Origin: a virus
Virus genome (UHGV): UHGV-0304018
DNA: 14,202 bases
Direction: 5' to 3' (one strand)
Shown piece by piece: positions 542-14,202 of this stretch (the first letter of the stretch is position 1; each line of letters opens with the position of its first letter). The position numbers were made by a program, and so were the translations under genes. The notes below the pieces were generated by a model. That model was not told the DNA's origin, ran no database searches, and saw only the letters and a program-made list of their open reading frames with translations.

Positions 542-606
542 CACACAGGCCGACGTAGTCGGTTTAGCTGTATAGCTAAAGTCACAGAGTGACCCACACA
601 CATATT

Positions 607-645
607 GCCTAAAGAGTCGCTAATGCTCTTTAGGCTTTCATTTGT
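607..645 (+). terminator. Rho-independent terminator, rightward (copy A)
   Basis: Perfect 10-bp stem gcctaaagag / ctctttaggc with a 9-nt loop, followed by tttcatttg. Confidence 0.6.
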
Positions 646-698
646 GGGTTAAGCTTTTCCCTTAGAAAACCTTCCCCACTCTCTGATCCCTCCCCATT

Positions 699-721
699 CC
701 CCCCTGGGGGGTTAGGGGGGG
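699..721. repeat. Homopolymer cluster C6-T-G6-TTA-G7
   Basis: Read directly: cccccctggggggttaggggggg, just left of the iteron array. Confidence 0.9.
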
Positions 722-763
722 ATCTATTGTGTGGTCTATTACTTTATCTATTAGTGTCAAATA

Positions 764-949
764 TTTTTACAGGTAGTAGTAAAAGATTTTGACAGGTAGT
801 AGTAAAAATATTTTACAGGTATGGGCCGTATTATTGGTGGGGTAGTAAAATATTTTGACAGGTTAGGGGCTGTGTATCATGGGTGCAATGACTGCAAAAC
901 AGGAGAGTATGACTGTATAAACACACAGGTGTGAAAATTCTTTACAGGT
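764..949 (+). repeat. Array of five iteron-like direct repeats, core TTTKACAGGT; candidate origin of replication or protein-binding array
   Basis: Cores at 765-774, 787-796, 811-820, 854-863 and 940-949; the first two units also share acaggtagtagtaaaa; spacing of the first three is 22-24 bp. No ORF on either strand. Confidence 0.6.
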
Positions 950-1141
950 TAGTGCGGTAATATTTACCGGGGTGTGGTGCCTGAGTATGACTGAAAGGGG
1001 TTGTAGGAAATCCCAACAGGTGGGGGAGTGATTGCATCTGATTTTTTACTCTGTATTAGCCGTCAATTGACCTATTTTGACTAGCAAACCTCTCTCCTCT
1101 CTCTTTGCTTTGATTTTCTCTCATGTGTGGGAAATATGCAG

Positions 1142-1167
1142 ATCAACACCCGTTGATTTTATCAACA
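1142..1167. promoter_or_regulatory. Overlapping palindromes ATCAA-N6-TTGAT-TTT-ATCAA including a DnaA-box-like TTATCAACA
   Basis: Read directly; TTATCAACA (1159..1167) is one mismatch from the TTATCCACA consensus. Confidence 0.3.
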
Positions 1168-1726
1168 GTTATGTTGACCGGGTGTCATAACTATGGCCCC
1201 TGGGGCAGTCCATCCTTCCCTCACACAGGACAATGAATACATAAAGAACATGAAAGACTGTTCACACCAACACGCCGATAAATTGCCTGAAGAGGCTTGC
1301 ATGGGGTTATTGTTGTGTGGGTAATGGTGATCATGCTAACAGATTATGTTAATCAGATGTAAATTCCGGTTTTGTGGTCTACAGAGAACAAACTATACTG
1401 GTTAAATGATCAGGGGAATGACTACAAAACAATCAAAAATGTGGGATATAGCCATCTATACGTCTAATGTGCTGTGTGGGGTGTTAGTGCATGCTTACAT
1501 GTAAGTCATTGATTTGAAGGGTTGGGAAAATTGCATTTAACATAATAGATCTTATCTACACTAATAAAGCGCACTACAAAATCTGATTTAAAAATCATGA
1601 TCAGTGGGCACAGAATTTACGTACAGCCACCTGAATAAATAATGTGCACAACATACAGCAAAGCTTAAGAATTAACATAATAGCAACGTGGTCGGCAGTG
1701 GTGTGATATTTGAGAATTGTTAGAAG

Positions 1727-1763
1727 AAAAAAGGGAGGTGGGGGAGCGCCTGCCTGGCACCTC
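1727..1763 (-). terminator. Possible weak leftward terminator in the gene-free region
   Basis: 6-bp stem GAGGTG / CACCTC with a 17-nt loop, followed on the minus strand by CC and T6. No matching promoter was found. Confidence 0.3.
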
Positions 1764-2302
1764 AGACGAACATCTGACGGGTATTAATACCGCTAATGGA
1801 TATTTCTGACACCCACACCCAAGACCGCTTTCAGCACACAGCCATACACCGCACAGGATGCAATTGTGATAACAAAAAATGGGGGTGTAATAGGGTAGGT
1901 CATCTTTCATCAAAATCACTTCTACGACGTTCCCAGAGTGATAACAAGAAAACAGGCCTCTAAGATTATCTGTGCCTCGTTTTTAGCTTTTTGTGTGGTT
2001 ACCAGGTGAATAGGAAATGTTAAAAACTGTTCATTTTATGCACAAACTAGTCAGGGTGATACTACAAATTGAGGTGTAAGAAATCCAGCTGCAGATAATC
2101 TTGCAGCCAGATTTTGCAGTTTTTGAGGGTATGTTAAATTTGACAAAAATAGAGAAAAGGCCAATTGAGCTAAGCTATTGATTTTATTAGTATTGCAAAA
2201 AAGGGTTACATCCTCTCTCTTACACTGTCAACAATGCCCAAAACCATTAAATCAATAAATAGGCATTAAATACCCATTAAATAGGGGTTAAATAGGGGAT
2301 AA

Positions 2303-2328
2303 ATAAAAAAGGGGCCGTGATGGCCCCC
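2303..2328 (-). terminator. Rho-independent terminator ending the leftward membrane-protein gene
   Basis: Perfect hairpin ggggcc-gtgat-ggcccc (2311..2327) followed on the minus strand by T6, 17 nt after the stop codon at 2345. Confidence 0.75.
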
Positions 2329-2344
2329 TGGTGGGTTGGTGTGG

Positions 2345-3055
2345 TTATTTCATAGGAGAGGTTTCTACGGCTTCACCGTACATCTCATTAAGCATCTTCA
2401 ATGCTTCCATATCAACATTCAGGAGTGTTCCCTCAGTGATCCAGGCGTTATTCTGCCATGCTTCGTGAACGAGTTCACCGTTATACCATCGAGCCGTTCG
2501 TGTAGTTTCTATGCTTACACCGTCCATGTGGCGCATCTGTAGCCAACGATCATTGCCTTTTACATCCTTGCACCATACCGTCAGAACATCTTTATTTTTC
2601 CCAGTAGGTGCCCCACTGTTAACCGCCACTTTAATCTGGTTGCAAGCACCTTTTTCTGCATGATTCCACAGCCAGGCGTGAATCTGGTATTTATCTGTGC
2701 ATCCTATATCTTTAGAGAGATCGCAATCTAGCACACCATAAATATATTTATATGCTTTTACCCTGTCCTCCCATGTAAGATCGGAGACGTTAACCACTTC
2801 TTCATGCTGTGAGTTCACCTCTTCCACATTTGCAGCTGTATTTCCTGTGGGAAGAGAGAAGTAGGCCCAGCCAATAAGCCCCGCGACTATAACCAGACTT
2901 GTTATGACTGCTCCAGGGTGCTCTTTATATTGTGCATGCAGCTTTTTAATATCTTTCCCTACACTCATCACTAGTAATAGAGGCAAAGCAATTACTAACA
3001 CCCATGGACCAAATACAATGCAAGCTAATAGTGTAACAATAATTCCCTTAAACAT
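2345..3055 (-). CDS. Membrane protein, 236 aa: two N-terminal TM helices plus a ~165-aa extracytoplasmic domain with four Cys; function unknown
   Basis: ORF track; hydrophobic segments at about aa 5-30 and 50-68; SD AAGGGG 7 nt before the ATG; own terminator. The superinfection-exclusion or defence role is inference only. Confidence 0.75.
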   Translation of the reverse strand: MFKGIIVTLLACIVFGPWVLVIALPLLLVMSVGKDIKKLHAQYKEHPGAVITSLVIVAGLIGWAYFSLPTGNTAANVEEVNSQHEEVVNVSDLTWEDRVKAYKYIYGVLDCDLSKDIGCTDKYQIHAWLWNHAEKGACNQIKVAVNSGAPTGKNKDVLTVWCKDVKGNDRWLQMRHMDGVSIETTRTARWYNGELVHEAWQNNAWITEGTLLNVDMEALKMLNEMYGEAVETSPMK

Positions 3056-3062
3056 AGTGGTA

Positions 3063-3083
3063 CCCCTTTGCGAGAAGTTGATT
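3063..3083 (-). promoter_or_regulatory. Duplicated leader element AAAUCAACUUCUCGCAAA (minus-strand sense) immediately 5' of the ribosome-binding site of 2345..3055
   Basis: 18 nt identical to the element at 3583..3603; a 12-nt core gcgagaagttga recurs at 8086..8097. Confidence 0.5.
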
Positions 3084-3112
3084 TAAGTTAATAACCTGGT
3101 GGACTGTTCACA

Positions 3113-3373
3113 CTATTTATTCTTCTTAAATCTCCCATCCTCCTTTCTTTCGATATTGTGGTAGTCGGCATAGGCTTTTAGCCTTCTGTGCACGGTGGCG
3201 ATCCCCACACCGAAGGTTTTAGCGATGACCTGTCGTGGCGTTCCCTCCTCAACCATCTTGTACATCTGTTCCGCTACATCCATTTGTGCGGCTATCTCCA
3301 TTTGCTTTGCCTTAGCTTTAATTTCAGCTATCAGCTCTTCCCTCAGTCTCTTAATATCTTTAGTTCCCGTCAT
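3113..3373 (-). CDS. Small DNA-binding protein, 86 aa: N-terminal charged helix plus a C-terminal HTH resembling the DNA-binding domain of Hin/Gin-type serine recombinases; no catalytic domain
   Basis: ORF track; GTPRQVIAKTFGVGIATVHRRLKAY resembles the Hin C-terminal HTH as recalled from memory, not searched; start codon overlaps the stop of an upstream small ORF (ATGA). Confidence 0.7.
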   Translation of the reverse strand: MTGTKDIKRLREELIAEIKAKAKQMEIAAQMDVAEQMYKMVEEGTPRQVIAKTFGVGIATVHRRLKAYADYHNIERKEDGRFKKNK

Positions 3374-3450
3374 AAACTCCGCTCAATGATGATTAATACA
3401 AAATCTAAGACTGCCAGACCTATTAAAAATACTTTGCCTCCTTTGCCCAT
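3370..3450 (-). CDS. Possible 26-aa hydrophobic peptide (MGKGGKVFLIGLAVLDFVLIIIERSL), translationally coupled to the HTH gene
   Basis: Hand translation; below the ORF-track length cut-off; single predicted TM segment; stop overlaps the downstream ATG. Confidence 0.25.
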   Translation of the reverse strand: MGKGGKVFLIGLAVLDFVLIIIERSL

Positions 3451-3451
3451 C

Positions 3452-3574
3452 TCACACCTCCACACACAGAGCTAACATCAGGGCTAAAACTCCAACCACC
3501 TCAATTGCCTTAACAATGTGTGGGTGATGAAACCTGGCCTTTTGCCATGCGCTGGCACTGTTCTTGATACCCAT
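3452..3574 (-). CDS. Possible 40-aa peptide with hydrophobic C-terminus (MGIKNSASAWQKARFHHPHIVKAIEVVGVLALMLALCVEV)
   Basis: Hand translation; SD AAGGTGA 5 nt before the ATG; the duplicated leader element lies immediately upstream. Confidence 0.3.
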   Translation of the reverse strand: MGIKNSASAWQKARFHHPHIVKAIEVVGVLALMLALCVEV

Positions 3575-3582
3575 AACTATCA

Positions 3583-3603
3583 CCTTTTGCGAGAAGTTGA
3601 TTT
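3583..3603 (-). promoter_or_regulatory. Second copy of the duplicated leader element, immediately 5' of the ribosome-binding site of the 40-aa ORF
   Basis: Read directly; identical 18-nt core to 3063..3083. Confidence 0.5.
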
Positions 3604-3638
3604 GTTTGCTCGGTTGGGTGCTTTCACTGGCTATGCCA

Positions 3639-3655
3639 GGTGACTTTCAGTCACC
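3639..3655. promoter_or_regulatory. Palindrome GGTGAC-tttca-GTCACC; same half-site as the repeat palindromes
   Basis: Read directly; sits in the divergent control region between the leftward module and the rightward capsid promoter. Confidence 0.4.
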
Positions 3656-3744
3656 CCTTTGGGTGTCTCTATCAATGCTACCCTTCCTTGATTCGAACTA
3701 TAACCGGGTAAATCCCCGGAAAACATTGATATTGATCAAAAGAT

Positions 3745-3775
3745 ATCTATCACGAATGAAAAAGTTATGATAGAT
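3745..3775. promoter_or_regulatory. Inverted repeat ATCTATCA-N15-TGATAGAT; candidate operator
   Basis: Read directly; about 90 bp upstream of the consensus capsid promoter; a further ttgatagagg half-site follows near 3800. Confidence 0.4.
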
Positions 3776-3861
3776 GCGATGAGATGACGTATTGATGGGA
3801 TTGATAGAGGTCTGAAAATACCGTTACTACGCTAATTATTAGAATTTATATAATAAGGGGG

Positions 3862-3890
3862 TTGACAATTTGAGAGAATACTGATATAAT
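3862..3890 (+). promoter_or_regulatory. Perfect consensus sigma70 promoter: TTGACA, 17-nt spacer, TATAAT
   Basis: Read directly: -35 at 3862..3867, -10 at 3885..3890, with an AT-rich upstream stretch. Confidence 0.8.
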
Positions 3891-3896
3891 ATACAT

Positions 3897-4370
3897 ATAC
3901 CGTAAATCAATGGTGAAAGTGATTTGCCGTATTTTCCTCCAAAGTAAAGGCGACCAGGTAGCGGTGCCGCCTTATAAATAACACTACCCTGATCATCGTT
4001 GAGTGGTCGATTAATTCTCCTATTGGGCTAGTTATCCACACAGTTTTCTTTTGCGGGTTTTCTGTGTGGGTAGCTATCCCGAAAGGTATTTCCCCGCTGA
4101 TGTGACCGCAGCCTGAACTGATCCGGGGGAGTGCCTTTCGTGATAGTGCTCTCTAGTAACCGTAACCCATACTGTGAACTATCATCCGACTGTTGTCGGT
4201 TTCCCCATGTGGAATAGCCCCCGCTTGGCTACGGTGCGGGGCTATCTCCCTCTCCTTGTATCAATTTCCCTTTAGATTTCCGGCATAACTTTTCGGCCCG
4301 AGCCTGTCGTGGTTTGAGAGGTTATACCGGAACTCTTTGAGGGGAGTTAATTTAAATCGCAGGTGATCAA
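3897..4370 (+). other. ~470-nt untranslated, hairpin-rich leader between the consensus promoter and the first capsid gene; candidate cis-regulatory RNA
   Basis: No plausible ORF; several strong stems, e.g. ccacacag-N18-ctgtgtgg (4036..4069), ccgac-tgtt-gtcgg (4187..4200), tagcccccgc-N11-gcggggcta, aaggcg-N16-cgcctt. Folds were judged by eye. Confidence 0.5.
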
Positions 4371-4706
4371 ATGAGAGATATGACTATCCGCACACGCGGA
4401 CACATCATTTCATACGCCGCAGATGAGCAATTTTCTATTCGCGACGTTGAAATTAAAAACAAAGTTAAGGCTGAGATTCCGGCTGGCACTGTTGTTGTGG
4501 TGACTGAGGAAGGCGAGGTTGAAACATTCGTTAAAGCAACGCACACCGGTAAAACTCCGCTGCTGGTTGTAGAACGTGCTGAGGTTGGTGACGCTTTTAT
4601 CGTTGTTGCGAACAAAGGTTGCTACATCAATCCGGCCTACGTGGATAAAGAAGGCTTAGCCGCTGTTATTGCTGCCAGCAATGGCGATTTGCGTGTTGCA
4701 CAATAA
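4371..4706 (+). CDS. Putative head decoration protein, 111 aa
   Basis: ORF track; size and position immediately upstream of the major capsid gene, as in lambda D-E; AGGTGA site before the ATG; codon usage typical of a highly expressed gene. Family assignment is by context only. Confidence 0.8.
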   Translation: MRDMTIRTRGHIISYAADEQFSIRDVEIKNKVKAEIPAGTVVVVTEEGEVETFVKATHTGKTPLLVVERAEVGDAFIVVANKGCYINPAYVDKEGLAAVIAASNGDLRVAQ

Positions 4707-4711
4707 GGAGG

Positions 4712-5764
4712 TTGAAGATGGCTAAGAAAGAATTTGAAGTTCGCGATCTGTGTGGTCTGATTAAAGACATCCCGCTGGATAACCAGATTATTTCAGCAAT
4801 GGATATCTTCAACACTACAGCCCTGTGCAATACCTTTAAATTTGAATATGACAAAGTTCGCCAGGTGAAACAAACCGCTTTCGGTCAGTATCCGCGCTAC
4901 GGTGAACAGATGGCTACCATTACCGCAGATGAGCGTGAAACGGGCACGGGTGATATGGCATTCACTGCCGCATCAAGTGCTATTTATCCTTCTGACTGGC
5001 AAGGTATCCGTGTTCCGGGCAAAGATTCCGAAGAGAATTTAGAGTCTGTAACCGCTCGTCGTGTTATTCAACTGGGTGAAGGACTACGCGCGACCCATGA
5101 AGAAGCACGCCAGCTTGCTCTCTTTGAGAACAAAATTATCCTTACCAAGGGTAAAGAACTGAATGTGTGCGAACTGCTGGGCGCACAGCAAACCACTTCA
5201 GAAGTGGATCTAGCTCAAGATATCCTTAAACAGCTGCAGGACCTGGTTGCACTGAGCAAGGTTAAACAGCGTGGTGTTGTTCGCGCTCTGCGTGGTTTCA
5301 CCCTGTTCTGCCGTGCTGAGCTCTTTGCTGCAATTCAGACTGATGAACTGCTCCGTAAAGTGCTGTTGTTCGGCAATCAGAATATTACCGACAAAGGTCT
5401 GATGTTCCCTGAGGATATTCTGCCGGGCTTCCCGACCTTCCGCATTCCGGGCTTAGCTCTGCGTGTGGTGCAAATGGATAGTCTGCCAGAGAATACTGCT
5501 TATCTGGTCCCACAGTTCCAGCCGCATGCGTTAGGCGATATGGTGGGCGTTTATACTCAATTTTTCGGCCCTTGCGCTCGCAACCTGAAGCTTGCAAACG
5601 GCGCTGCACGTGAAGCTTTCATGTATATGGAAGAGTCCAGAGGTAAACGAGAAATCTTCATTGAATCCTCTTATGCTTTCATGAACATGATGCCTGAGGT
5701 TGTGGTTAAAGTGAGTGTTAGTAACTCCGCCGCCGCTGCTCTGGCAAAAGCCAAGGCTAAATAA
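4712..5764 (+). CDS. Putative major capsid protein, 350 aa
   Basis: ORF track; strong AGGAGG site 6 nt before the ATG; size and position after the decoration-like gene; followed by a terminator. Fold not verified. Confidence 0.85.
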   Translation: MKMAKKEFEVRDLCGLIKDIPLDNQIISAMDIFNTTALCNTFKFEYDKVRQVKQTAFGQYPRYGEQMATITADERETGTGDMAFTAASSAIYPSDWQGIRVPGKDSEENLESVTARRVIQLGEGLRATHEEARQLALFENKIILTKGKELNVCELLGAQQTTSEVDLAQDILKQLQDLVALSKVKQRGVVRALRGFTLFCRAELFAAIQTDELLRKVLLFGNQNITDKGLMFPEDILPGFPTFRIPGLALRVVQMDSLPENTAYLVPQFQPHALGDMVGVYTQFFGPCARNLKLANGAAREAFMYMEESRGKREIFIESSYAFMNMMPEVVVKVSVSNSAAAALAKAKAK

Positions 5765-5795
5765 GGTCCTTCTTCGAAGGCCAAATAAAAGCAAA

Positions 5796-5846
5796 GGGAA
5801 GAGGTGAGAGATCGGGGATAGGTCTTTCCCTCTTCCCTTTTTTATT
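5796..5846 (+). terminator. Rho-independent terminator after the capsid gene
   Basis: 9-bp stem gggaagagg / cctcttccc with a 24-nt loop, followed by ttttttatt. Confidence 0.55.
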
Positions 5847-5877
5847 ATCCCCGTCTTAAGTTTTTGAGGTGTCTTTT

Positions 5878-6129
5878 ATGAAAATTGTTTTATACGGCGA
5901 CCGTGACGACGTGCCTTTTGATATTATCCATATCGATGACGAGGATCTGCCGGAATTCCTGCGTATCTCCACATTTGCCGCCTGCTATGACGTTAGCCGC
6001 CAGGCTATGCATAAATACCGTGAATATAATAAATGCACCTGGGCCGAGACTTTCGAACATTTTATTGCACGCAAACAGGCACAGGACCGCAAAAAAGCCC
6101 TGAATGCCCATAATCGTTTTGCAAAATAA
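5878..6129 (+). CDS. Hypothetical small protein, 83 aa, with a possible HTH (STFAACYDVSRQAMHKY)
   Basis: ORF track ORF 5869..6129, start re-placed at the ATG at 5878 with GAGG 8 nt upstream. Confidence 0.65.
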   Translation: MKIVLYGDRDDVPFDIIHIDDEDLPEFLRISTFAACYDVSRQAMHKYREYNKCTWAETFEHFIARKQAQDRKKALNAHNRFAK

Positions 6130-6234
6130 CGCTCTCGGGAAGAGCTATAAGCGATTCTAACGAATAACTGCCCTGTATTTTCTGCAGATTTTAAGCAGGG
6201 CAACGAAAAGATTCATTTTTGAGGCATGTTCAAT

Positions 6235-7002
6235 ATGGCTAATGATGCTCTAACAGCTGCAAAACAAGCTGAGTCGAGATCTCCTGCATTCACTGTTATG
6301 TGTGGGGGATATTCACAAAACAAAAATATAATGGATGGCTTCAACTATACCGATAATGTGGCTATCTTCTTTGACTCTATCTCTGATGTCAGCTATTCGT
6401 TCCCTGTTGAGAAATCGAGCTATGCGGTCGAGGATGGCACCACCATGTCAGACCATGCCGTCATTAAAGATAAATCTGTCAGCTTTACGGGTATTGTTAC
6501 CTCTTCCCCTCATATCATCCGGAAAGAGAACTACATCGACCGGAACACTGATCCAGATAATCCCCGTGAATCTATGCGCCCTGCTGCCGCTGTTCAGGCA
6601 CTTATGGAAATGAGAGACAAGCGCCAGCTGGTTAGCCTGGTTAGTGAAGATGCCGGACTTCTTGAGAACTTCATCATGACGAAATGTGAAGTTAAGCGTA
6701 GCTCTTCCTCTGGCGACTGCATCACTATTGATTGCACTTTTGAAGAATTCCGCACCTTCAAGGTGAAGATGGTCGAAAATGCCGGAGTTTTCACTAACAG
6801 TAAGAAGGTGAATAAAACACAGCAAAAGGGTGCTGTTAACAGTGCTGAGAAGAATAGCAACGTCGGGAACTCAACCAACACCCCATCGGCTAAGCCTAAA
6901 AATTTACAAACTTTGCTCGATGAAAATGATGGGGCTATGAGCACAAAAGACATTTATGATCAGCAAAGGCAAGCCAAATTTGCCAAGGATGCTACAAAAT
7001 GA
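6235..7002 (+). CDS. Hypothetical phage protein, 255 aa, probably virion-associated; function unknown
   Basis: ORF track ORF 6226..7002, start re-placed at the ATG at 6235 (GAGG 10 nt upstream); stop overlaps the next gene's start (ATGA). Confidence 0.75.
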   Translation: MANDALTAAKQAESRSPAFTVMCGGYSQNKNIMDGFNYTDNVAIFFDSISDVSYSFPVEKSSYAVEDGTTMSDHAVIKDKSVSFTGIVTSSPHIIRKENYIDRNTDPDNPRESMRPAAAVQALMEMRDKRQLVSLVSEDAGLLENFIMTKCEVKRSSSSGDCITIDCTFEEFRTFKVKMVENAGVFTNSKKVNKTQQKGAVNSAEKNSNVGNSTNTPSAKPKNLQTLLDENDGAMSTKDIYDQQRQAKFAKDATK

Positions 7003-7457
7003 AAGTCCGGTGCACCATAGACAAGCGCATGATGGATAAGCTGCATAAAGAGCTCTCACAGATGGAAGGTGTAGCGGTTGGCTGGGATGACGGGAAACAC
7101 TATAGCGGCCTGAATTACGCCACACTGGCGGCTATCCACTCTGAGGGGTGGGGTGATTTGCCTAAGCGCTCATTTATGGAGTCTGCCCACGCTGCAATGC
7201 TCTATGAGAGCCTGAGACACACAAAAGCCCTGATTAATGCAATCGTAAAGGGTGGGAGCTCTGAGGCCGTCAGAAAGCGAATTGGCAAGCGATACGCCGA
7301 CATTTTGGAGACTATCCTGATTAGTGGGCAATTCAGCAATAACAAGGTTTCCCCACAATGGGCAAGCTATAAAGGCTTCAATGATGCAATGCGCCACTAT
7401 GATGATTTGATCGGTGCAATCAAATACTGGGTAGACATAGACAAGAAAGGGGCCTGA
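6999..7457 (+). CDS. Putative head-tail joining or tail-completion protein, 152 aa (HK97 gp10-like)
   Basis: ORF track; motif HSEGWGDLPKRSFMES matches the P-x-R-x-F signature I associate with that family; size ~150 aa. Recalled from memory, not searched. Confidence 0.75.
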   Translation: MKVRCTIDKRMMDKLHKELSQMEGVAVGWDDGKHYSGLNYATLAAIHSEGWGDLPKRSFMESAHAAMLYESLRHTKALINAIVKGGSSEAVRKRIGKRYADILETILISGQFSNNKVSPQWASYKGFNDAMRHYDDLIGAIKYWVDIDKKGA

Positions 7458-7470
7458 TAGCCCCTCTCTC
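7449..7470. terminator. Possible bidirectional terminator between convergent genes
   Basis: Hairpin ggggc-ctgata-gcccc overlapping the stop of 6999..7457, with T-rich sequence on both strands. Confidence 0.4.
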
Positions 7471-7475
7471 TGAGA

Positions 7476-7625
7476 TTAGATAAACTGGGATAATTCCCGC
7501 ACAAGCTTTATCTCCTGCCGTTCCTTCTGCTTCTCTTCTAACCATTTCCGGCCTTCTTCAGTCTTGAGAAACTTGCGAGCGTGAATCTTGCGGTTATTTC
7601 GCTTAATGGCATTGGCATTCTTCAT
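7476..7625 (-). CDS. Small very basic protein, 49 aa (MKNANAIKRNNRKIHARKFLKTEEGRKWLEEKQKERQEIKLVRELSQFI)
   Basis: Hand translation; below the ORF-track cut-off; SD AAGGGG before the ATG; candidate promoter just upstream; its start context is nearly identical to that of the membrane-protein gene. Confidence 0.5.
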   Translation of the reverse strand: MKNANAIKRNNRKIHARKFLKTEEGRKWLEEKQKERQEIKLVRELSQFI

Positions 7626-7659
7626 AGTGTCACCCCTTCTTATGACCTGCTACGCCTAC

Positions 7660-7688
7660 ATTATAGCCAAAATCCTGAATTCAGACAA
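7660..7688 (-). promoter_or_regulatory. Candidate leftward promoter: TTGTCT, 17-nt spacer, TATAAT
   Basis: -10 is rc of 7660..7665 and -35 is rc of 7683..7688; about 27 nt upstream of the start of the 49-aa ORF. Confidence 0.5.
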
Positions 7689-8085
7689 TAGAACTCTTTT
7701 TGATGCCGTGTTGGTGGTAAGGAGAAACACTAGCATCATTTAGGGGTTTTCAGGTTTTCATGTAGATCAGCTTTATCAGGTACCTGCTTATATTCCGGTG
7801 CGGTGAAACCGTGTGGGCATCTCTTAGTTTTGGCTTATCACTTATTGCCGGGTAAGAGAGCAGAACCACCAACGTTTGCCTGTTTATCACCTTGGTTAGG
7901 GTGAGGCCGCATCAAGCCCAGTGCTCTACAAGATACTCCAGATCATAGACGCTTATTTTCTCTTAGAGGTCGCGTTAACCTCTGGGATCTGTTTCCACTG
8001 ATGAATATAAAACAAACGGTATGAATGATCAAACGTGAACAGAAAGAGAGTTGACTTTCTCTCTGCAGATGATCACACTTGCCAG

Positions 8086-8097
8086 GCGAGAAGTTGA
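8086..8097. repeat. Third copy of the 12-nt core gcgagaagttga
   Basis: Read directly; lies 3' of the tape-measure gene, overlapping a possible rightward terminator hairpin (agcccc-N19-ggggct followed by ttttatt, 8097..8130). Confidence 0.5.
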
Positions 8098-8142
8098 GCC
8101 CCAAAGGATGACAAATCCCGAGGGGCTTTTATTATCAACCAG

Positions 8143-10284
8143 TTAGAAAAGCTGATTAGCTTCCTGTGTGGCTTTCCAATCCAGCTGATCGCTGACTTCC
8201 TTCTGGATCACCCTGGCAATTCCCCCCTCATCAATGGTTATCTCCCACTTGCCGGAGATCTCACCCTGCGGAACTACACTGATTTGAGTCGGCTGATAGC
8301 CTCCATTCTGAATAGCAATACCACCCGTTGGTGTTGGTCTGGTAATGTAGCGTCCTGCGTCCAGACGATAATCAAGGCCAAGGAAGCTAGAAGCACTATT
8401 AACCATACTGGTTAACCATTCAGGATGTTTAGCTCCTTCCTGCCGCTGATTATCAGGATTCTGCCAGTAGGAATCTAAGCTATTTGCAATGTCAAATCCT
8501 GTCAAAACAATCCCTGCCGGACCTGCAAATCTTCCTCCAAGTCTGCCTGCTTTCCCGATAAAGCCGCCTCTACCTGGTCTGCCTTTGCCTGCTGTGCCTC
8601 CAGTGCTGATATCACCAACACCGACTAAAGCACTAAGCGCCGCTTTAAGTTTCCACAGCATGGAAATAAGGCCGCCAACCATGCCAGCAATGCTTGTTGC
8701 AACCTTCAGGCCTAACAGGGCGGTCACAACCTGGCCAATCTTCTCGCCTGCATCCTGTGCGGTCCAGCCTAACGTCTCACCAATGCCTTTGGCGATCTTC
8801 TTAGTCCACCACCAAGCCCAGTTGACCCAAAAATAAATTTCATGCATTGCCTCGCCTAACATAACTCCGAGAGATTTGGCATCTTCACCTGAGCTACTGA
8901 AAATTGAGGATAAATCTTCAAAGATATAAATAAGGGATTCTGACAGGGTAATGACGCCATCCGCAGGATCCACAACACCCATAAAGGATTGCTTTAGTTT
9001 AAAAAACTGGTTGCTCATTCTCTGCAGTGCCACTTCAGGCTGTTGCATAGATTTAGCAAAAGCGTCAGTTTCTTTTGCAGCACCCCAGATTTTCACTAGA
9101 GAGGGAAGAAGCTTGTCCAGGGTGATTTTGCCATCTGCCATGGCTTTATCGAATTCCTGGGCACTCTTGATGATTCCGGCATCAATAGCGGCCTGTTGAA
9201 AATCCTGTTGTGAGCCTGCAAAGGCTTCTGACAGCTGGCCACGCAGCTCTTCCGCAGCTACTCTTCCTTTTGAAGCCATTTGTTGGACCGCAACAAGCGC
9301 CCTGTTCTGTTGCTCGCCAGTAGCACCCACTGAGCGGCCTTTAATCGCCATAGCCTCAAAAAGAGCCTGCTTATCAGATTCCTTCATGGTGGGAGTAGCG
9401 GCAGCAAAACGCATATAGCCACCCTCCATCTCACGCTGATCCATCCCGTAGGTGTTGGCTGTGTTCTCGATAAAAGCCATCTGCTGGTCAGTCTTGGCTT
9501 TATCATCCTTGTTCTGAGCAAGCAAACCATAATAGGCTGAGTTATGGTCAGATTGAGCGCTCATAGCACCACTAACAGCTCTCTGAATACCCCATCCTGC
9601 AGCGGTCAGGCCAATGGCTATCTTGCCTAAAGCACTGTTAAGCTTGCCGATATTGTTATGCACCTTGCTCGCACCTGCTGCCAGTTTATCTAGCTTGCTT
9701 TGAAAGGTGGTGGCATCTCTAGAGGCCATCTTCATTTCAGCTCTGAGTCGGGCCATTTTCTGATTATAGGTCTGCAGGTTAATAGCCCCTTTAGCATAAT
9801 CAGCATTAACTCTCTGGATTCTGCTTTGGAACTGAGCAACCAGGGATCCATCAAACATGCTGCTGATTCGTGCACTGTTGGCCCCTACACGTGCTTTTCT
9901 GTGCTGAACATCTCCAACACTACGATCTAACAGTTTTTGTTGTCTGGCGGCTTCTCTGGCTTGTTGTTGGTAGAACTTGCGCATAGAGTTAAGTTCGGCA
10001 TTGTTGCCCCCGGTCAGACGGCTGACAGCCTGAGCACGTTGTTTCTTCTGTGCTTCCTGTTGTTTCCTCTGAGCTCTGGCTATCTGCTCTTCCACCTTAG
10101 CGCGTGTTCTTTGTGTTCTGAGCACAGCCTGATTAGATTTAAAATCAGCTTTAGCTATATCGTCGGTAGCTTTCTTCCAGGATTTTTTATAATCCTCAAG
10201 CCGTTTAACTTCTTTTCGCCAGGAGGATTTATCAGAGTCCCAGTAAATAACGTTTGTTAGTCTGGCTACTTCCTTCATTGCCAT
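8143..10284 (-). CDS. Tail tape measure protein, 713 aa
   Basis: ORF track; charged coiled-coil-like N-terminal third, central region with the conserved core recalled for tape-measure proteins (GRVAAEELRGQLSEAF), and hydrophobic and Gly-rich segments near the C-terminus; SD GAGG before the ATG. Confidence 0.85.
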   Translation of the reverse strand: MAMKEVARLTNVIYWDSDKSSWRKEVKRLEDYKKSWKKATDDIAKADFKSNQAVLRTQRTRAKVEEQIARAQRKQQEAQKKQRAQAVSRLTGGNNAELNSMRKFYQQQAREAARQQKLLDRSVGDVQHRKARVGANSARISSMFDGSLVAQFQSRIQRVNADYAKGAINLQTYNQKMARLRAEMKMASRDATTFQSKLDKLAAGASKVHNNIGKLNSALGKIAIGLTAAGWGIQRAVSGAMSAQSDHNSAYYGLLAQNKDDKAKTDQQMAFIENTANTYGMDQREMEGGYMRFAAATPTMKESDKQALFEAMAIKGRSVGATGEQQNRALVAVQQMASKGRVAAEELRGQLSEAFAGSQQDFQQAAIDAGIIKSAQEFDKAMADGKITLDKLLPSLVKIWGAAKETDAFAKSMQQPEVALQRMSNQFFKLKQSFMGVVDPADGVITLSESLIYIFEDLSSIFSSSGEDAKSLGVMLGEAMHEIYFWVNWAWWWTKKIAKGIGETLGWTAQDAGEKIGQVVTALLGLKVATSIAGMVGGLISMLWKLKAALSALVGVGDISTGGTAGKGRPGRGGFIGKAGRLGGRFAGPAGIVLTGFDIANSLDSYWQNPDNQRQEGAKHPEWLTSMVNSASSFLGLDYRLDAGRYITRPTPTGGIAIQNGGYQPTQISVVPQGEISGKWEITIDEGGIARVIQKEVSDQLDWKATQEANQLF

Positions 10285-10285
10285 T

Positions 10286-10522
10286 TTATACCTCGCCCTG
10301 TCTTAAAGATTTTGATAATGAAATAGCCCTTTTCAGGGCCTCTTTATCAATATTATATTTCTCCGCCAGCTCTTCGATTGAGAGGCCTTCTGTGTGGGAG
10401 CTACTTTTAATAATGGTGGACCCCTCTTTCGCTGCCTCTGGCAGGTGACCTATTGTCACCCCTTCGGGCGTGTCTTCGGAGTCCTTAACCAGTTTTTGAT
10501 AAATCTTTTCGTAGATATTCAT
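10286..10522 (-). CDS. Hypothetical protein, 78 aa, immediately upstream of the tape-measure gene
   Basis: ORF track; SD AAGG 8 nt before the ATG; stop is 1 nt from the tape-measure ATG. A tail-assembly-chaperone role is inferred from position only. Confidence 0.7.
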   Translation of the reverse strand: MNIYEKIYQKLVKDSEDTPEGVTIGHLPEAAKEGSTIIKSSSHTEGLSIEELAEKYNIDKEALKRAISLSKSLRQGEV

Positions 10523-10523
10523 A

Positions 10524-10913
10524 TCATTTGCCTTTGCGTCTTAGTGGACACTTATCGCCAATAGTCCACACAAAAATATAATGGCGCTTGCTTTCAGCTT
10601 TAGGATTTAATAATTCTTTATGCAAATATCCGGCTGACAGCATTTTATCGACCAGGTTTTTCACTCTTTGCCCTTCCTCAAATGTTTGTGCTTTGAAATA
10701 GAGATTTGGAAAGTTTTGGCCTGTATACTTTCCATCTTCATTTAAGCGGGTGCATACCCAACGACATAAATCATCGTCGTTAAGATCACTAACGTGTGGT
10801 TTATCATCGCTGCTAAATAACGCCTGTTTAAAATGGGAGTAACTAAACTCCCCTTCTTCCAGGAAATCACCCTCTTCGAATTCAACTATCATTTCTTCAA
10901 TATTCATAGGCAT
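10524..10913 (-). CDS. Hypothetical protein, 129 aa, acidic N-terminus; possible tail assembly chaperone by position
   Basis: ORF track; compact gene spacing. Confidence 0.75.
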   Translation of the reverse strand: MPMNIEEMIVEFEEGDFLEEGEFSYSHFKQALFSSDDKPHVSDLNDDDLCRWVCTRLNEDGKYTGQNFPNLYFKAQTFEEGQRVKNLVDKMLSAGYLHKELLNPKAESKRHYIFVWTIGDKCPLRRKGK

Positions 10914-10967
10914 ATCCTCTCATTGATGCACCCCCCAAAAAATGGGGAGTGCTTATTTATCAATAGC

Positions 10968-11411
10968 TTAATCAAGATTAACCAGTTTGAGAGGTTTGAC
11001 AGCTTGGAGCATGGTCTGCATCATTCCTACGCTTATTTCAAAGAGATCTGCCATGTTCTGAAGGCTTGCCCCTTCTGCCTCAATCATTGATTTGGATAAG
11101 GCAGCAATCACAAAGCCATCCTGGGCGCTGTTCCACATGCTGATAAGAGGATCATCACCGTGTTGGCGCATAAGGTCCTGAATCATCCACAGCCTACATG
11201 CCATAACCACCAAATCGACATAGAAAACATCACCATTAGCGGACTTGCATTCAGCAAAAGCGTGGTGTCTGTGTTTTAAGAAGTGCTCTTTGTCACGGGT
11301 AAATGCCAGGGTGTTGGTAAACTTGCCATCTAAAAGATCCTGGCGAACTTTTGAATCTTCAGCGTCGAAAGCTTTGATTACCTGGGATAATAATTTAGCG
11401 ATTTGAGACAT
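10968..11411 (-). CDS. Hypothetical protein, 147 aa
   Basis: ORF track; AGGA 7 nt before the ATG. Confidence 0.75.
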   Translation of the reverse strand: MSQIAKLLSQVIKAFDAEDSKVRQDLLDGKFTNTLAFTRDKEHFLKHRHHAFAECKSANGDVFYVDLVVMACRLWMIQDLMRQHGDDPLISMWNSAQDGFVIAALSKSMIEAEGASLQNMADLFEISVGMMQTMLQAVKPLKLVNLD

Positions 11412-11484
11412 TTGGAATTCCTTAAATTAGAGCCCCGGAAGGGGTTAAAGTGAGTCGAAAATAAATAAATCGAAGAGATAAAAC

Positions 11485-11973
11485 TTAGGCTTTCTGGGCC
11501 ATTGCTTTCTGGACTTTATTTCTATGGCGGCGGTAGATGAATATAAATTCGCGATAAGCACGACTACCGGGCTTAGGCAAACGTTGATTAAGCTCCTTAC
11601 GTGGCAGGATTTCACTCAACAAGCCCCAGATATGAAAGCAGGTTACTTTTAATTCTTTTGCTATCTCTTCAATATTCATCCCACAATTCCACATTAAAAG
11701 AGATTTGCGGCGGCGATCTTCGAAGACATTTCTATCTCTATCTATTTCGTTGTAGACACTGAGGGGAACTCGACACCGTGGATTCCAGGACTCATTATAT
11801 AGTTTTTGGACTTTCTCAAGTTTAACGCCTGTATATTCCGCCACGAATTCAGGGGTAAAGCCCTCGACTAATAAGTGTTTAGCCTGTCGTGTTGGTTGAT
11901 CATCACTGGGGAGATATTTCTGCAGTGCTACCAGTTTTTCAAATTGGGAATCAGAAAGATCAGATTTGAACAT
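11485..11973 (-). CDS. DNA-binding protein, 162 aa, with a sigma70 region-4-like HTH; candidate late-gene activator or small-terminase-like protein
   Basis: ORF track; RRKSLLMWNCGMNIEEIAKELKVT follows the region-4 pattern (R-x-hydrophobic-L-x4-G-x3-EEIA-x2-L-x-V); GGAGA 7 nt before the ATG. Confidence 0.75.
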   Translation of the reverse strand: MFKSDLSDSQFEKLVALQKYLPSDDQPTRQAKHLLVEGFTPEFVAEYTGVKLEKVQKLYNESWNPRCRVPLSVYNEIDRDRNVFEDRRRKSLLMWNCGMNIEEIAKELKVTCFHIWGLLSEILPRKELNQRLPKPGSRAYREFIFIYRRHRNKVQKAMAQKA

Positions 11974-12257: not shown

Positions 12258-13121
12258 TTATTTTGTAATGGTTAATTCGCCTTTTACAAGCTTGCAGTTG
12301 TTCCACAATCTTTCTTTCGGGGCATCATAGCCATGACTAATATAATCGATGATAATTGTTTTACCTCTTTTAGCTACATGTTGAGCCACCTTAAGGGCCT
12401 GTTCTGTTAAATGCCAATAATCATCTTCTTTCCAGATTCTACCCTCAACGGTGCCTTTAATTTTATCCATCACCTCCGGCCCGTAAAATGCATCTCGCAA
12501 TTCAGAGAGTTTAATGCTCTTCCGATCCTTAAATGTTGCCTGAATCCCTTTGTATTTGGCGTTCATCTCATCACTTGTCAGAATCGGATAACCGTGCTCA
12601 TCTTTCTCACGTTTGCCAGCGTCTCTAAAGCGCTCTCTGCGCTCGTTCTTAGGTTGGGTAGGCAATTGCACCACCTCGGCCTTTTTAGCTTGCTGTGTGG
12701 GTTGTTTTGGGGCTTCCTGTTGATTATCGGGGGCCTCTTTACTAGATCCCACACTGTCGGAGGTTTTAATACCCTGCTCATCACACATCTTGCCAAGCTG
12801 ATCAGGGGTAATTAGCAGTTTGTAATGATTAGATTTGCCTTTACTTTTAACTATTGAAATAAGCCCGGCATTTTCTAGAGATTTAATCGAGTTAATAACT
12901 GTCGGTCTTGAAACATCATAATCGTCTGCTAATCTCTGTTCAGAGATAAATATTTCACAACCTGCAGCATTAAAACTTGCCATCTCACCGTAAATTGTCA
13001 TTTCCAACAAGTTTAAGTGAAATCTTTCTTTATTGGTTGTAGTTTTTGCAATCGGATTTTTAAAAATGTATTTGATGAAACGTTTAAAAAGGGGAGTAAA
13101 ATTTTCCCCGTAATTACTTGC
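12258..13121 (-). CDS. Winged-helix DNA-binding protein, 287 aa (N-terminal wHTH, low-complexity linker, C-terminal domain); replication-initiator-like or antirepressor-like
   Basis: ORF track ORF 12258..13181, start re-placed at the internal ATG at 13121 (GGGGGA site 4-5 nt upstream), which removes the overlap with 13138..13353; wHTH-like segment ISEQRLADDYDVSRPTVINSIKSLENAGLISIV. Confidence 0.75.
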   Translation of the reverse strand, partial: ASNYGENFTPLFKRFIKYIFKNPIAKTTTNKERFHLNLLEMTIYGEMASFNAAGCEIFISEQRLADDYDVSRPTVINSIKSLENAGLISIVKSKGKSNHYKLLITPDQLGKMCDEQGIKTSDSVGSSKEAPDNQQEAPKQPTQQAKKAEVVQLPTQPKNERRERFRDAGKREKDEHGYPILTSDEMNAKYKGIQATFKDRKSIKLSELRDAFYGPEVMDKIKGTVEGRIWKEDDYWHLTEQALKVAQHVAKRGKTIIIDYISHGYDAPKERLWNNCKLVKGELTITK

Positions 13122-13137
13122 CATAATTCCCCCATAA

Positions 13138-13353
13138 TTATTTATTAATGTTATTGGTGTATTTAGCCAGTTCCCGCTCAAGGCGAATGCAATTTAGTTT
13201 TAAAATTGCTTCTTCAATGTGTGGATATTCTCCTTTATGTTTACGAATGAATGCATAAACGGAAGTTTTGCGGAAGTTCCCCTTAAGTACGTTCTCGACG
13301 ATTTCGTCAGTAGTCCAGTTTACCAGCTGGCTGATCGGTCCGGTTTTAGCCAT
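13138..13353 (-). CDS. Small hypothetical protein, 71 aa; possible regulator
   Basis: ORF track; perfect AGGAGG site 8 nt before the ATG. Confidence 0.75.
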   Translation of the reverse strand: MAKTGPISQLVNWTTDEIVENVLKGNFRKTSVYAFIRKHKGEYPHIEEAILKLNCIRLERELAKYTNNINK

Positions 13354-13486: not shown

Positions 13487-13636
13487 TCAGACATTCGTCA
13501 AATTGTCAACAATCTTTTTGTATTTATCTATCATTTTTTCTTCAAGATTGTCGATTGCAGTTACTCCGGCTATGTAGGCAACACCGCACCACAGTACAGC
13601 CAGGTTGATGATCGCTATTGCATCAGTAATTTCCAC
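13487..13636 (-). CDS. Possible small single-TM protein, 49 aa, GTG start; its start lies inside the conserved 110-nt repeat block
   Basis: Hand translation (VEITDAIAIINLAVLWCGVAYIAGVTAIDNLEEKMIDKYKKIVDNLTNV); GGAGG 5 nt before the GTG; competes with a probably spurious plus-strand ORF 13472..13672. Confidence 0.35.
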   Translation of the reverse strand: MEITDAIAIINLAVLWCGVAYIAGVTAIDNLEEKMIDKYKKIVDNLTNV

Positions 13637-13671
13637 ATTGACCTCCGGATCTGTTTCTCCCCCTATTTATA

Positions 13672-13700
13672 ATCTTATCATATTGTCAACCAATTGTCAA
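13672..13700 (-). promoter_or_regulatory. Candidate leftward promoter inside the conserved 110-nt repeat block (copy B)
   Basis: Same TTGACA / 17-nt / TAAGAT arrangement as copy A, upstream of the small ORF 13487..13636, which has a GGAGG ribosome-binding site. Confidence 0.35.
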
Positions 13701-13914
13701 TGAGAATTATTATCATTTAGGTGTGCTATAGGTGCCATAGCCTGCACAGCAGACACAAGCAAGCCCACAAGGGAGGGCACTTTTTGCCTTAAGCGCTCTA
13801 AAATCGATTCTAACGCGATTTAGAGGTCAGGTAATGCAATTGCACTACTCACACTAGTTAATGCAGCCAGAAGGCCATTTAGGGGGCTTATTTTCGATTT
13901 ATGAGTGTATCCTT

Positions 13915-13933
13915 TATATATGTGTGCGTGCAC
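13915..13933. repeat. 19-nt alternating purine-pyrimidine tract (tatatatgtgtgcgtgcac) in repeat copy B
   Basis: Read directly; followed by the palindrome cccgcgcggg. Confidence 0.8.
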
Positions 13934-14089
13934 CCGCGCGGGAGACTCTTTGCTGCCTCCTTCCGGCGCTGGCAAGCTTTCGGCAGCGGTCCACATGTGG
14001 GCCTCATGCTGACGCATTCGCCGGACCACACACAGACCCGAAGGGCTTAGCCATGGGCTAAGGTGCCGTAGGCACTCCCACACACAATT

Positions 14090-14124
14090 GGGTGACGTGT
14101 CATGTATGGAATACATTGTCACCC
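14090..14124. promoter_or_regulatory. Same GGGTGAC-N21-GTCACCC palindrome (copy B)
   Basis: Identical to 507..541. Confidence 0.5.
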
Positions 14125-14137
14125 CCACACACATATT

Positions 14138-14176
14138 GCCTAAAGAGTCGCTAATGCTCTTTAGGCTTTCATTTGT
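14138..14176 (+). terminator. Rho-independent terminator, rightward (copy B)
   Basis: Identical 10-bp stem, 9-nt loop and T-rich tail as 607..645. Confidence 0.6.
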
Positions 14177-14202
14177 GGGTTAAGCTTTTCCCTTAGAAAA
14201 CC

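Follow-up and report, generated by a model that had tools for sequence, protein, structure and literature searches.

The virus genome UHGV-0304018, a stretch of 14,202 nucleotides to which we refer as the window, contains at positions 3,862 to 7,470 a row of five plus-strand genes behind a consensus promoter. A first-pass annotation made from the sequence alone had described this row as an orphan capsid operon, a shell encoded in the absence of portal, protease, scaffold and terminase genes. Both the promoter, which matched the consensus at 12 of 12 positions, and all five open reading frames (ORFs) were recovered in our analysis. Here we show that the window covers more than one full turn of a circular Escherichia coli plasmid of about 13.5 kb. 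We conclude with high confidence that this replicon carries a functional capsid gene and neither portal nor terminase, and we argue that it is probably a satellite of a group of large virulent myoviruses.

The capsid gene and its presumed transcription unit

The central gene of the row (4712/4718..5764, plus strand) encodes 350 amino acids (aa) when read from a TTG codon and 348 aa when read from an ATG codon; its relatives are annotated at 346–348 aa. The protein matched the PHROGs family phrog_29, “major head protein”, with an E-value of 1.7e-20. It had no Pfam match at E ≤ 0.1, and its relatives P0019-P0021 carry PF03864. A structure prediction with AlphaFold2 based on an alignment of 29 distant relatives, which were collected by an exhaustive HMMER search, reached a predicted local distance difference test score (pLDDT) of 83.4 and a predicted template modeling score (pTM) of 0.81, compared to a pLDDT of 31 when only the single sequence was supplied. 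The top Foldseek match of this model was the capsid protein of phage PhiTE (9cul, E 7.5e-21, template modeling score ~0.7), with further matches to ICP1 (8g1r), Bas63, Sf14 and lambda and weaker ones to encapsulins such as 8wol (E 1.7e-9). A profile of the capsid family found phi92 gp124 at 5e-56 and the capsid proteins of phi92 and PhiTE at 1e-53 to 1e-56. The capsid fold that had been proposed for this protein is thus upheld by the model and its structural matches: as predicted, it is an HK97-fold capsid protein of the lambda gpE / Phage_cap_E type. In a search against a single locus it was 24% identical over its full length to the capsid protein of an rV5-like phage, and its sequence suggests a distant paralogue of the Vequintavirinae capsid proteins. 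No match at 1e-5 was obtained with tblastn against 50,697 phage records, and searches of the GTDB representative genomes and of IMG/VR for loci matching the capsid alignment returned no result. The capsid cluster comprises 441 member sequences, and pairwise ratios of non-synonymous to synonymous substitution rates (dN/dS) of the gene lie between 0.06 and 0.13.

Directly upstream of the capsid gene, a 111-aa protein is encoded (4371..4706, plus strand) in the slot that is held by the decoration gene in rV5-like phages. A protein of 107–132 aa precedes the capsid gene in the same way in the related loci L004-L007, L010, L011 and L014. Homologues of the 111-aa protein were recognized in L004 (47% identity), L011 (67%) and L010 (41%), and homology was not detected in L014; the gene evolves at a dN/dS of 0.07–0.31. 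The protein had no Pfam or PHROG hit, and its profile found no credible match among PDB chains, where a designed repeat protein was the only scoring entry. Comparison with the rV5-like decoration protein using hhalign gave a probability of 3% and an E-value of 0.015. The earlier label “decoration-like” therefore describes the position of the gene, as homology to the decoration proteins of rV5 or PhiTE was not detected. On the other side of the capsid gene, an 83/86-aa protein (5869/5878..6129, plus strand) had no family hits. A short ORF of 53–81 aa occupies this slot in L004-L007, L010, L011 and L014, with homologues of 34% (L004), 37% (L010) and 51% identity (L011). Inspection of the sequence by eye points to a possible helix-turn-helix.

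The capsid unit is headed by a sigma-70 promoter (3862..3890, plus strand) of the form TTGACA-17-TATAAT with an upstream TG, i.e. an extended -10 element. No other place in the window matches the consensus at 12 of 12 positions, and the promoter is kept in the related plasmids L001, L015, L016, L017 and L011; a near-twin on the minus strand (13509-13481) faces the operon of a Rep-like protein. Between promoter and first gene extends a region of 479 nt (3897..4375, plus strand), a structured 5' leader or cis-acting region whose RNA fold has an energy of -172.9 kcal/mol (z = -5.96 against shuffled sequences). The leader is nearly invariant among close plasmids and conserved beyond the synonymous sites of the genes, with partial conservation of the hairpins in L011, and it contains a convergent pair of CCACACA motifs at 4036/4063. 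In all lineages examined, at least about 0.65 kb and mostly 0.8–1.1 kb without a called gene precede the pair of 111-aa and capsid genes.

Downstream of the capsid gene, an inverted repeat followed by a T-run (5796..5848, plus strand) can be read from the sequence as GGGAAGAGG...CCTCTTCCC and then TTTTTTATTAT; a terminator scan of this place listed only a shorter overlapping hairpin at 5814-5831. This putative attenuating terminator means that the five genes are probably split into a unit of the 111-aa and capsid genes and a downstream unit. The arrangement suggests strong joint expression of the first two genes and attenuated read-through into the three that follow. On the opposite strand, upstream of the capsid promoter, an 86-aa protein of the HTH_7 family (3113..3373, minus strand; PF02796, 3.6e-6) is encoded. 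It is kept in L010, L011 and L014, has a dN/dS of 0.04–0.11 and is a candidate repressor.

Tail genes, the plasmid backbone and its relatives

The row had been thought to end in three small virion-type genes. Two of these are indeed virion genes, but they belong to the tail and not to the head. The first (6226/6235..7002, plus strand) encodes a tail tube initiator, a Dit-like baseplate protein of 258/255 aa (PF21821, 3.8e-25) that matched the “tube initiator protein” of PhiTE (PDB 9cuy_K) at 2.6e-34 as well as phi92 gp135. It is about 45% identical to the tail tube initiator of rV5-like phages, and its dN/dS is 0.18–0.26. In a set of 5.8 billion proteins, no phage protein on a phage-sized contig was closer than about 50%. 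The second (6999..7457, plus strand) encodes a tail-completion or Neck1-like protein of 152 aa (phrog_222, 1.6e-29). It is a homologue of bas57_0011 of an rV5-like phage, shares 42–49% identity with proteins of Vequintavirinae and of phiTE/CR8-type phages and has a dN/dS of 0.07–0.17; it had no PDB hit.

Nor do the capsid genes stand alone, as had been stated. A tape measure gene of 713 aa (8143..10284, minus strand), the only ORF of the window that exceeds 350 aa, converges on the capsid unit. It was identified by PF20155, TIGR02675 and phrog_5255 (1.9e-139), matched the PhiTE tape measure in the PDB at 4e-21 and shares, along its full length, about 25% identity with the tape measure of rV5-like phages (778 aa). 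With a dN/dS of 0.24–0.31, it is the most variable structural gene in sister plasmids, with about 70% aa identity where the capsid protein has 96%. Upstream of the tape measure gene, four small genes for proteins of 78, 129, 147 and 162 aa (10286..11973, minus strand) had no significant family hits. The 162-aa protein gave weak, sub-threshold matches to helix-turn-helix families and has homologues in L010 (45%) and in an integrated island, L007 (29%, E 5e-12). Although the equivalent position in rV5-like phages is taken by the tail assembly chaperone, none of the four proteins matches the chaperone family PF21822. In Pfam, PHROGs, PADLOC and the PDB the small minus-strand proteins found no tail assembly chaperone, small terminase (TerS) or defence match. 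All four identified structural proteins (capsid, tube initiator, tail-completion protein and tape measure) are thus full-length homologues of proteins of virulent rV5-like myoviruses of ~135–150 kb, i.e. of Vequintavirinae and their phi92/PhiTE relatives.

Over its entire length, the window aligns with circular, completely sequenced plasmids of E. coli that measure 13.2–13.7 kb, and its two ends overlap. Using megablast, it was matched in 7 of 5,426 complete genomes, exclusively on E. coli plasmids and on no chromosome; likewise, each of the ten places matched in complete E. coli genomes lies on a plasmid. The hosts of these plasmids come from four continents and from sources that include humans, cattle, pig and chicken, and PLSDB typed the plasmids as non-mobilizable. 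The first-pass annotation had envisaged that portal, protease and terminase genes might lie just outside the window. There is no such outside on a circle of 13.5 kb, and the expected absence was borne out: scans of the 14 main ORFs of the window with Pfam, PHROGs and NCBIfam found no portal, protease, scaffold or terminase in the whole replicon. The same scans revealed no tube, sheath, baseplate wedge, fibre or lysis gene, and no integrase was among the family hits from these or from further domain scans of the window ORFs. With only five virion-related genes in 13.5 kb, the replicon falls short of the complete gene set of phage-plasmids of the P1, N15 and SSU5 types.

The two ends of the window, 1-671 and 13626-14202, are non-identical versions of one plasmid region of about 600 nt, in which blocks of 95–100% identity are broken by unrelated blocks (111-281, 317-354 and 378-493). 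This suggests a multimer, assembly from a mixed population or a recombination hot spot at this place. One sequenced plasmid, p3RM10740 (L002, NZ_CP043822.1, 39.6 kb), is a head-to-tail trimer of the 13.5-kb unit with one degenerate copy, whose capsid and baseplate annotations are truncated; the trimer is either a real multimer or an artefact of long-read assembly.

About one quarter of the replicon is free of ORFs. One such region (600..2340, 1.7 kb) contains four 22-nt iterons at its left end (753-863) and a cluster of CCACACA motifs; it yielded no Rfam family and no tRNA, and we presume it to be an origin or other cis-acting region. In the window as a whole, Rfam found nothing significant and no tRNAs were present. 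Stretches of 2–3 kb in which no gene is annotated or called also occur in sister and cousin plasmids (L001, 7331-9536; L009, 4004-7111). A Rep-like protein of 307 aa and an upstream 71-aa gene (12258..13353, minus strand) gave HTH_36, HTH_11 and DnaD_N-type hits indicative of a winged helix, and their sequences point to a plasmid maintenance module in which the larger protein would act as Rep. The Rep-like gene (12258-13181) is highly swapped among sister plasmids, at 42–99% aa identity. When sister plasmids are compared, the tape measure (~70%) and the Rep-like protein (42–99%) diverge much more strongly than the capsid protein (94–99%), which looks like mosaic exchange or diversifying selection. 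A further gene (2345-3055) encodes a 236-aa protein with a hydrophobic N-terminus and no family hit in a variable cargo slot, which is filled in sister plasmids by an ORF of 173 aa (L001, without detectable similarity) or 195 aa (L016). The 236-aa protein may be an accessory, exclusion or defence gene product.

The architecture of the window recurs in other lineages (L004, L005, L009/L010, L011 and L014) whose capsid proteins share 28–82% identity with that of the window. A small gene, the capsid gene, a second small gene and the tube initiator gene follow each other, the tape measure operon converges on them, and in most lineages the tube initiator gene is followed by the tail-completion gene. 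In the E. coli plasmids L009/L010 (14.7 kb), the capsid protein is 51%, the tube initiator 59% and the tape measure 33% identical to those of the window; in L014, also of 14.7 kb, capsid identity drops to 28%. We found at least 19 distinct clusters of tube initiators at 90% identity on contigs whose longest member measures 13.2–15.2 kb, and a limit of capsid capacity would produce this constancy of size. Across all structural genes, dN/dS values of 0.06–0.31 indicate purifying selection, and no gene was disrupted in the complete sister plasmids that we compared.

More distant relatives were also observed. A chromosomal island of about 10 kb (L007, 1515-11346; DAZZAK010000015.1) lies beside a partial integrase gene and encodes a Rep-like protein, a homologue of the 162-aa protein, PF26210 (Phage_phiTE_211), a 709-aa tape-measure-like protein, a 112-aa protein and a capsid protein of 26% identity; it seems to be a cousin of these plasmids that has become integrated. 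Two E. coli contigs of 19 kb (L012/L013) carry genes for a tube initiator (41%), a tape measure (43%) and a tail-completion protein (33%), all in one direction, together with an HNH gene and a Lambda_Kil-like gene and with no detectable capsid homologue. In L014, a homing-endonuclease gene of the T5orf172/GIY-YIG type (2710-3642) is present, and the lineage also carries a resolvase. The only phage DNA match of L014 runs through this homing-endonuclease gene and extends to many phages, with the best E-value for the Vequintavirus phiWec189.

Such a set of recurring lineages, including L007 and L012/L013, is not what would be expected of a decaying prophage fragment. The first-pass annotation had offered a domesticated or degraded prophage module as an alternative, and our data speak against it, since synteny is kept down to 28% capsid identity, contig sizes stay at 13–15 kb and the complete sister plasmids that we compared have no disrupted gene.

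DNA elements shared with Vequintavirus genomes

In addition to protein homology, the plasmid has DNA in common with the phages. When the region 3380-4370 of the window was compared with the 50,697 phage records using blastn, the sole match was an intergenic element of 52 nt that forms three hairpins (3621..3672, plus strand). This element occurs in 66 phage records at 88–90% identity (E 6e-10), and no annotated feature lies beneath the match in any annotated record among those listed. The 15 listed records with the element measure 128–143 kb, and Vequintavirus is the classification of both records that we examined, i.e. phage naam and “Campylobacter phage C7”. Many records named “Campylobacter phage” (MG0656xx) match in the same way as rV5-like coliphages, and C7 is marked UNVERIFIED; since C7 is classified under Vequintavirus, the “Campylobacter” host labels are likely wrong. 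In phage naam (L018), the element is found at 4001-4052 in a stretch of about 2.5 kb without annotated genes or long ORFs that sits between convergent gene blocks. The hairpin stems are kept between plasmid and phage, including 2 compensatory pairs, while the loops vary.

A second copy of the element in the window (10425..10475, plus strand) lies inside the ORF of the 78-aa protein and is 84% identical to the phage copy. Sister plasmids have either copy 1 or copy 2, and a metagenome plasmid contig, L026, has both at the same spacing of 6805 nt. An exact scan of IMG/VR for the element gave nothing, and that of GTDB genomes returned only apparent chance matches in unrelated taxa. In metagenomes, the exact scan yielded one rV5-like phage contig, two plasmid-type contigs from human-gut metagenomes (L024 and L026) and likely chance hits.

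The heptamer CCACACA, which is enriched about 10-fold, provides a second link. It occurs 22 times in the window compared with 1.6 expected occurrences, mostly in non-coding DNA and mainly between 495 and 4069, and 11 times (1.6 expected) in the plasmid lineage L010. In the gene-free region of naam (L018, 1738-4732) we counted 9 copies where 1.0 is expected, with a same-strand spacing of ~340–430 nt; the motif was not enriched across 45 kb of phage structural genes. The 52-nt match and the CCACACA enrichment together imply that plasmid and phage group have cis-acting DNA in common, which goes beyond common ancestry of the proteins. Possible roles of the two elements include a packaging signal, helper-driven replication, regulation and a terminator. 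Other parts of the window that we searched did not extend the similarity: the region 7440-8150 had no phage DNA match, and the region 560-2340 gave one weak, irrelevant hit of 50 nt. A likeness of the plasmid iterons to the gene-free region of the phage was considered and not supported. This phage region yielded nothing significant in Rfam and no tRNAs.

A probable plasmid-borne satellite and its alternatives

In its gene content, the element fits the general definition of a satellite: essential virion and packaging functions are missing, and genes and sites matched to a helper are present. The helper-dependent encapsidation and transfer that also belong to this definition are predicted. We estimate at roughly 0.6 the probability that the window represents a plasmid-resident satellite of rV5-like phages, i.e. 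of Vequintavirus or a close relative. A helper-dependent element with its own capsid, as it had been suggested for this locus, is the best-supported reading in view of the capsid fold, the absent packaging genes and the purifying selection. However, the element is a plasmid and not a chromosomal island.

In such a life cycle, the plasmid would replicate autonomously by means of its iterons and the winged-helix Rep-like protein. The structural genes might be kept quiet or attenuated through the interplay of the perfect promoter, the structured leader of 479 nt and the nearby divergent helix-turn-helix gene. Infection by a virulent rV5-like myovirus would then mobilize the plasmid. Its capsid protein and the 111-aa partner could build a shell sized for about 13–15 kb that would assemble on the helper portal with helper scaffold and protease and be filled with plasmid DNA by the helper terminase. 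Genomes of 13–15 kb are within the range of T=4 satellite capsids such as those of P4 and the Staphylococcus aureus pathogenicity islands (SaPIs). The plasmid's own tape measure, tube initiator and tail-completion-like protein may replace those of the helper, in analogy to the Vibrio satellite PLE11 and its helper ICP1, whereas tube, sheath, baseplate and fibres would be taken from the helper. Given a tape measure of 713 aa instead of 778 aa, the chimeric tail is predicted to be ~10 nm shorter. The 52-nt element and the CCACACA clusters, which plasmid and phages share, may have been copied from the helper and could allow helper factors to recognize the plasmid.

Several observations weigh against the satellite reading. 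Encapsidation and transfer are predicted from the genes. The viral contigs of IMG/VR yielded no relative of the capsid gene, no TerS-like or pac/cos function could be assigned, and about 3.2 kb of L010 that we searched had no phage DNA match. The capsid protein is only 24% identical to that of the presumed helper, which makes its fit with the helper portal and scaffold uncertain. A perfect sigma-70 promoter does not obviously agree with expression that is induced by a helper. In phage JEP1, the 52-nt element is ~94 kb away from the terminase gene, so that a classical pac site beside terS is not implied. The element could also be a plain terminator or the end of a tiny ORF, since the C-terminus of tiny ORFs (...ETP[EK]GVT..HLA*) can be read from it.

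The same set of genes could alternatively serve defence. In this case, the plasmid would be an anti-phage decoy that is itself not packaged and whose paralogues poison the assembly of rV5-like phages in a dominant-negative manner, thereby protecting the host population. All four structural proteins have homologues among the parts that nucleate assembly in a single phage group, the tape measure evolves fastest among the structural genes, as expected in an arms race, and a block of tail assembly is known from satellites and prophages (PMC12987554). Yet interference would not need a full-length capsid gene at a dN/dS of ~0.1 together with a conserved partner, and it leaves the tight size of 13–15 kb and the cis elements shared with phages unexplained; moreover, no known defence family was hit. 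We consider a pure decoy unlikely. It is partly compatible with a satellite, since defence and transfer coexist in known satellites and may do so here.

It is less probable still that the plasmid is a satellite of another helper that has yet to be sampled, such as a relative of rV5, phi92 or PhiTE that is temperate or plasmid-borne, and that its likeness to Vequintavirus reflects only common ancestry. The low identities to Vequintavirus proteins (24–49%) and the lack of DNA matches to known phages in the searched part of L010 would agree with such a helper, and the tail-completion protein is slightly closer to those of phiTE/CR8-type and phi92-like phages. On the other hand, the 52-nt element is found at 88–90% identity in 66 phage records and in nothing else in the collection, both examined records being Vequintavirus, the phage region with this element also has the CCACACA clusters, and searches of very large databases found no closer phage proteins.

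Decay of a phage-plasmid or prophage into a functionless structural module on a cryptic plasmid is very improbable. Such a remnant might be suspected since only a fragment of the virion gene set is encoded, about a quarter of the replicon is without ORFs and p3RM10740 holds a degenerate copy. However, gene order and full-length ORFs are kept across 28–82% capsid identity, every structural gene shows a dN/dS of 0.06–0.31 in an element that is widespread, and no closer parent phage exists among 5.8 billion proteins; the lineages of 28–50% identity also argue against recent clonal spread as the cause of conservation. Finally, an encapsulin-like or other non-viral compartment, to which the HK97 fold with its weaker encapsulin matches (8wol, E 1.7e-9) might point, is the least probable reading, because phage capsids of a single clade give the best matches, the capsid gene keeps its synteny with the genes for tube initiator, tail completion and tape measure throughout the lineages and no cargo-type gene was identified.

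If the plasmid is a satellite of rV5-like phages, its closest counterparts in terms of tail genes are the PLEs (elements like phage-inducible chromosomal islands) of Vibrio, which we compared by their published description. PLE satellites of the lytic myovirus ICP1 substitute their own versions for three helper proteins, namely the tape measure (20% identity), the tail assembly chaperone (20%) and the baseplate hub (41%), and the chimeric tails of PLE11 and ICP1 are 10 nm shorter (PMC12987554). As in PLEs, the presumed helper is a virulent myovirus; the ICP1 capsid (8g1r), which is among the top fold matches, falls into the same structural clade as the capsid protein of the window, and the plasmid has its own tape measure (25%) and baseplate-core tube initiator (45%) that are distantly homologous to those of the helper group. 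In contrast, PLEs are integrated, with a large serine recombinase, whereas we describe a plasmid; PLEs take the coat protein of the helper, which is resized by the external scaffold TcaP, whereas the plasmid has its own capsid gene, and it additionally carries a tail-completion-like gene.

The first-pass annotation had likened the element to phage-inducible chromosomal islands that form capsids (cf-PICIs). These also encode an HK97-fold capsid protein of their own, and some have putative tape measure (tmp) genes. Yet cf-PICIs are chromosomal and possess their own portal, protease, connectors, small and large terminase (TerS/TerL) and HNH, with only the tails being borrowed (Alqurainy et al., bioRxiv 10.1101/2022.09.08.507074). 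The window, with iterons and a Rep-like protein, is a plasmid that lacks integrase, portal, protease, connectors and terminase and has tail-core genes instead, so that the features which define cf-PICIs are missing. The cos PICIs of the SaPIbov5 type with Ccm (PMC8569155) are more similar in that a capsid homologue is the only head gene and portal, scaffold and terminase of the helper are used, as they would be here. Their Ccm, however, is close to the capsid protein of the helper and co-assembles with it, and SaPIs are integrated, depend on temperate siphoviruses and have no tail genes.

P4 resembles the plasmid in its possible persistence as a plasmid, its size of ~11.6 kb and its use of a virion from a helper myovirus. 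Unlike the plasmid, P4 encodes neither capsid nor tail proteins and uses Sid/Psu to change the size of P2 capsids; it encodes its own primase-helicase, has a cos site identical to that of the helper and relies on a temperate helper. No families of the P4 set (Sid/Psu/Delta/Epsilon and the alpha primase-helicase) were found in the Pfam, PHROGs and NCBIfam scans. Among satellites of actinobacterial hosts, the EPIPs of Mycolicibacterium are reported to encode a capsid protein as well as a tape measure and to have altered tails (PMC12822802), and the Streptomyces satellites MulchRoom and MiniFlayer are associated with virulent helpers (PMC10690885). In contrast to the element described here, these satellites encode either TerS, scaffold, adaptors and integrase or a complete module for head and packaging; none is a plasmid, and their sequences are unrelated to that of the window.

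According to a 2025 review, only one plasmid satellite has been demonstrated, which is a satellite of an inovirus, and reviews date the first demonstration of satellite-encoded tape measures and chimeric tails, in Vibrio PLEs, to 2025–26. In the literature we found no description of satellites of the rV5 group, of these plasmids or of plasmid satellites with capsid and tape measure genes. The element lacks the features that define cf-PICIs, PLEs, P4-like satellites or phage-plasmids and probably belongs to a satellite family that is new and unusual in both its lifestyle and its set of genes. For a broader scenario we see about even chances: the 13–15-kb E. coli plasmids would be a widespread, unrecognized satellite family of virulent Vequintavirinae that is purely plasmid-borne, has its own small shell and its own tail core, borrows portal, scaffold and terminase of the helper and is recognized via the 52-nt element and CCACACA arrays, with L007 and L012/L013 making it part of a larger hidden clade of tail-remodelling satellites in Enterobacteria.

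If the satellite reading is true, it would represent a tailed-phage satellite with shell and tail-core genes whose persistent state is a plasmid; P4, which is capable of the plasmid state, has neither. Its gene set would lie between the strategies of resizing the helper capsid and of making a whole capsid. The findings would also establish a satellite system in E. coli, the presumed rV5-like helpers of which are contained in the BASEL collection and include candidates for phage therapy, so that capsid-size control, chimeric tails and satellite-mediated resistance would become testable in a model organism. Finally, they suggest a route of transfer for plasmids that PLSDB types as “non-mobilizable”.

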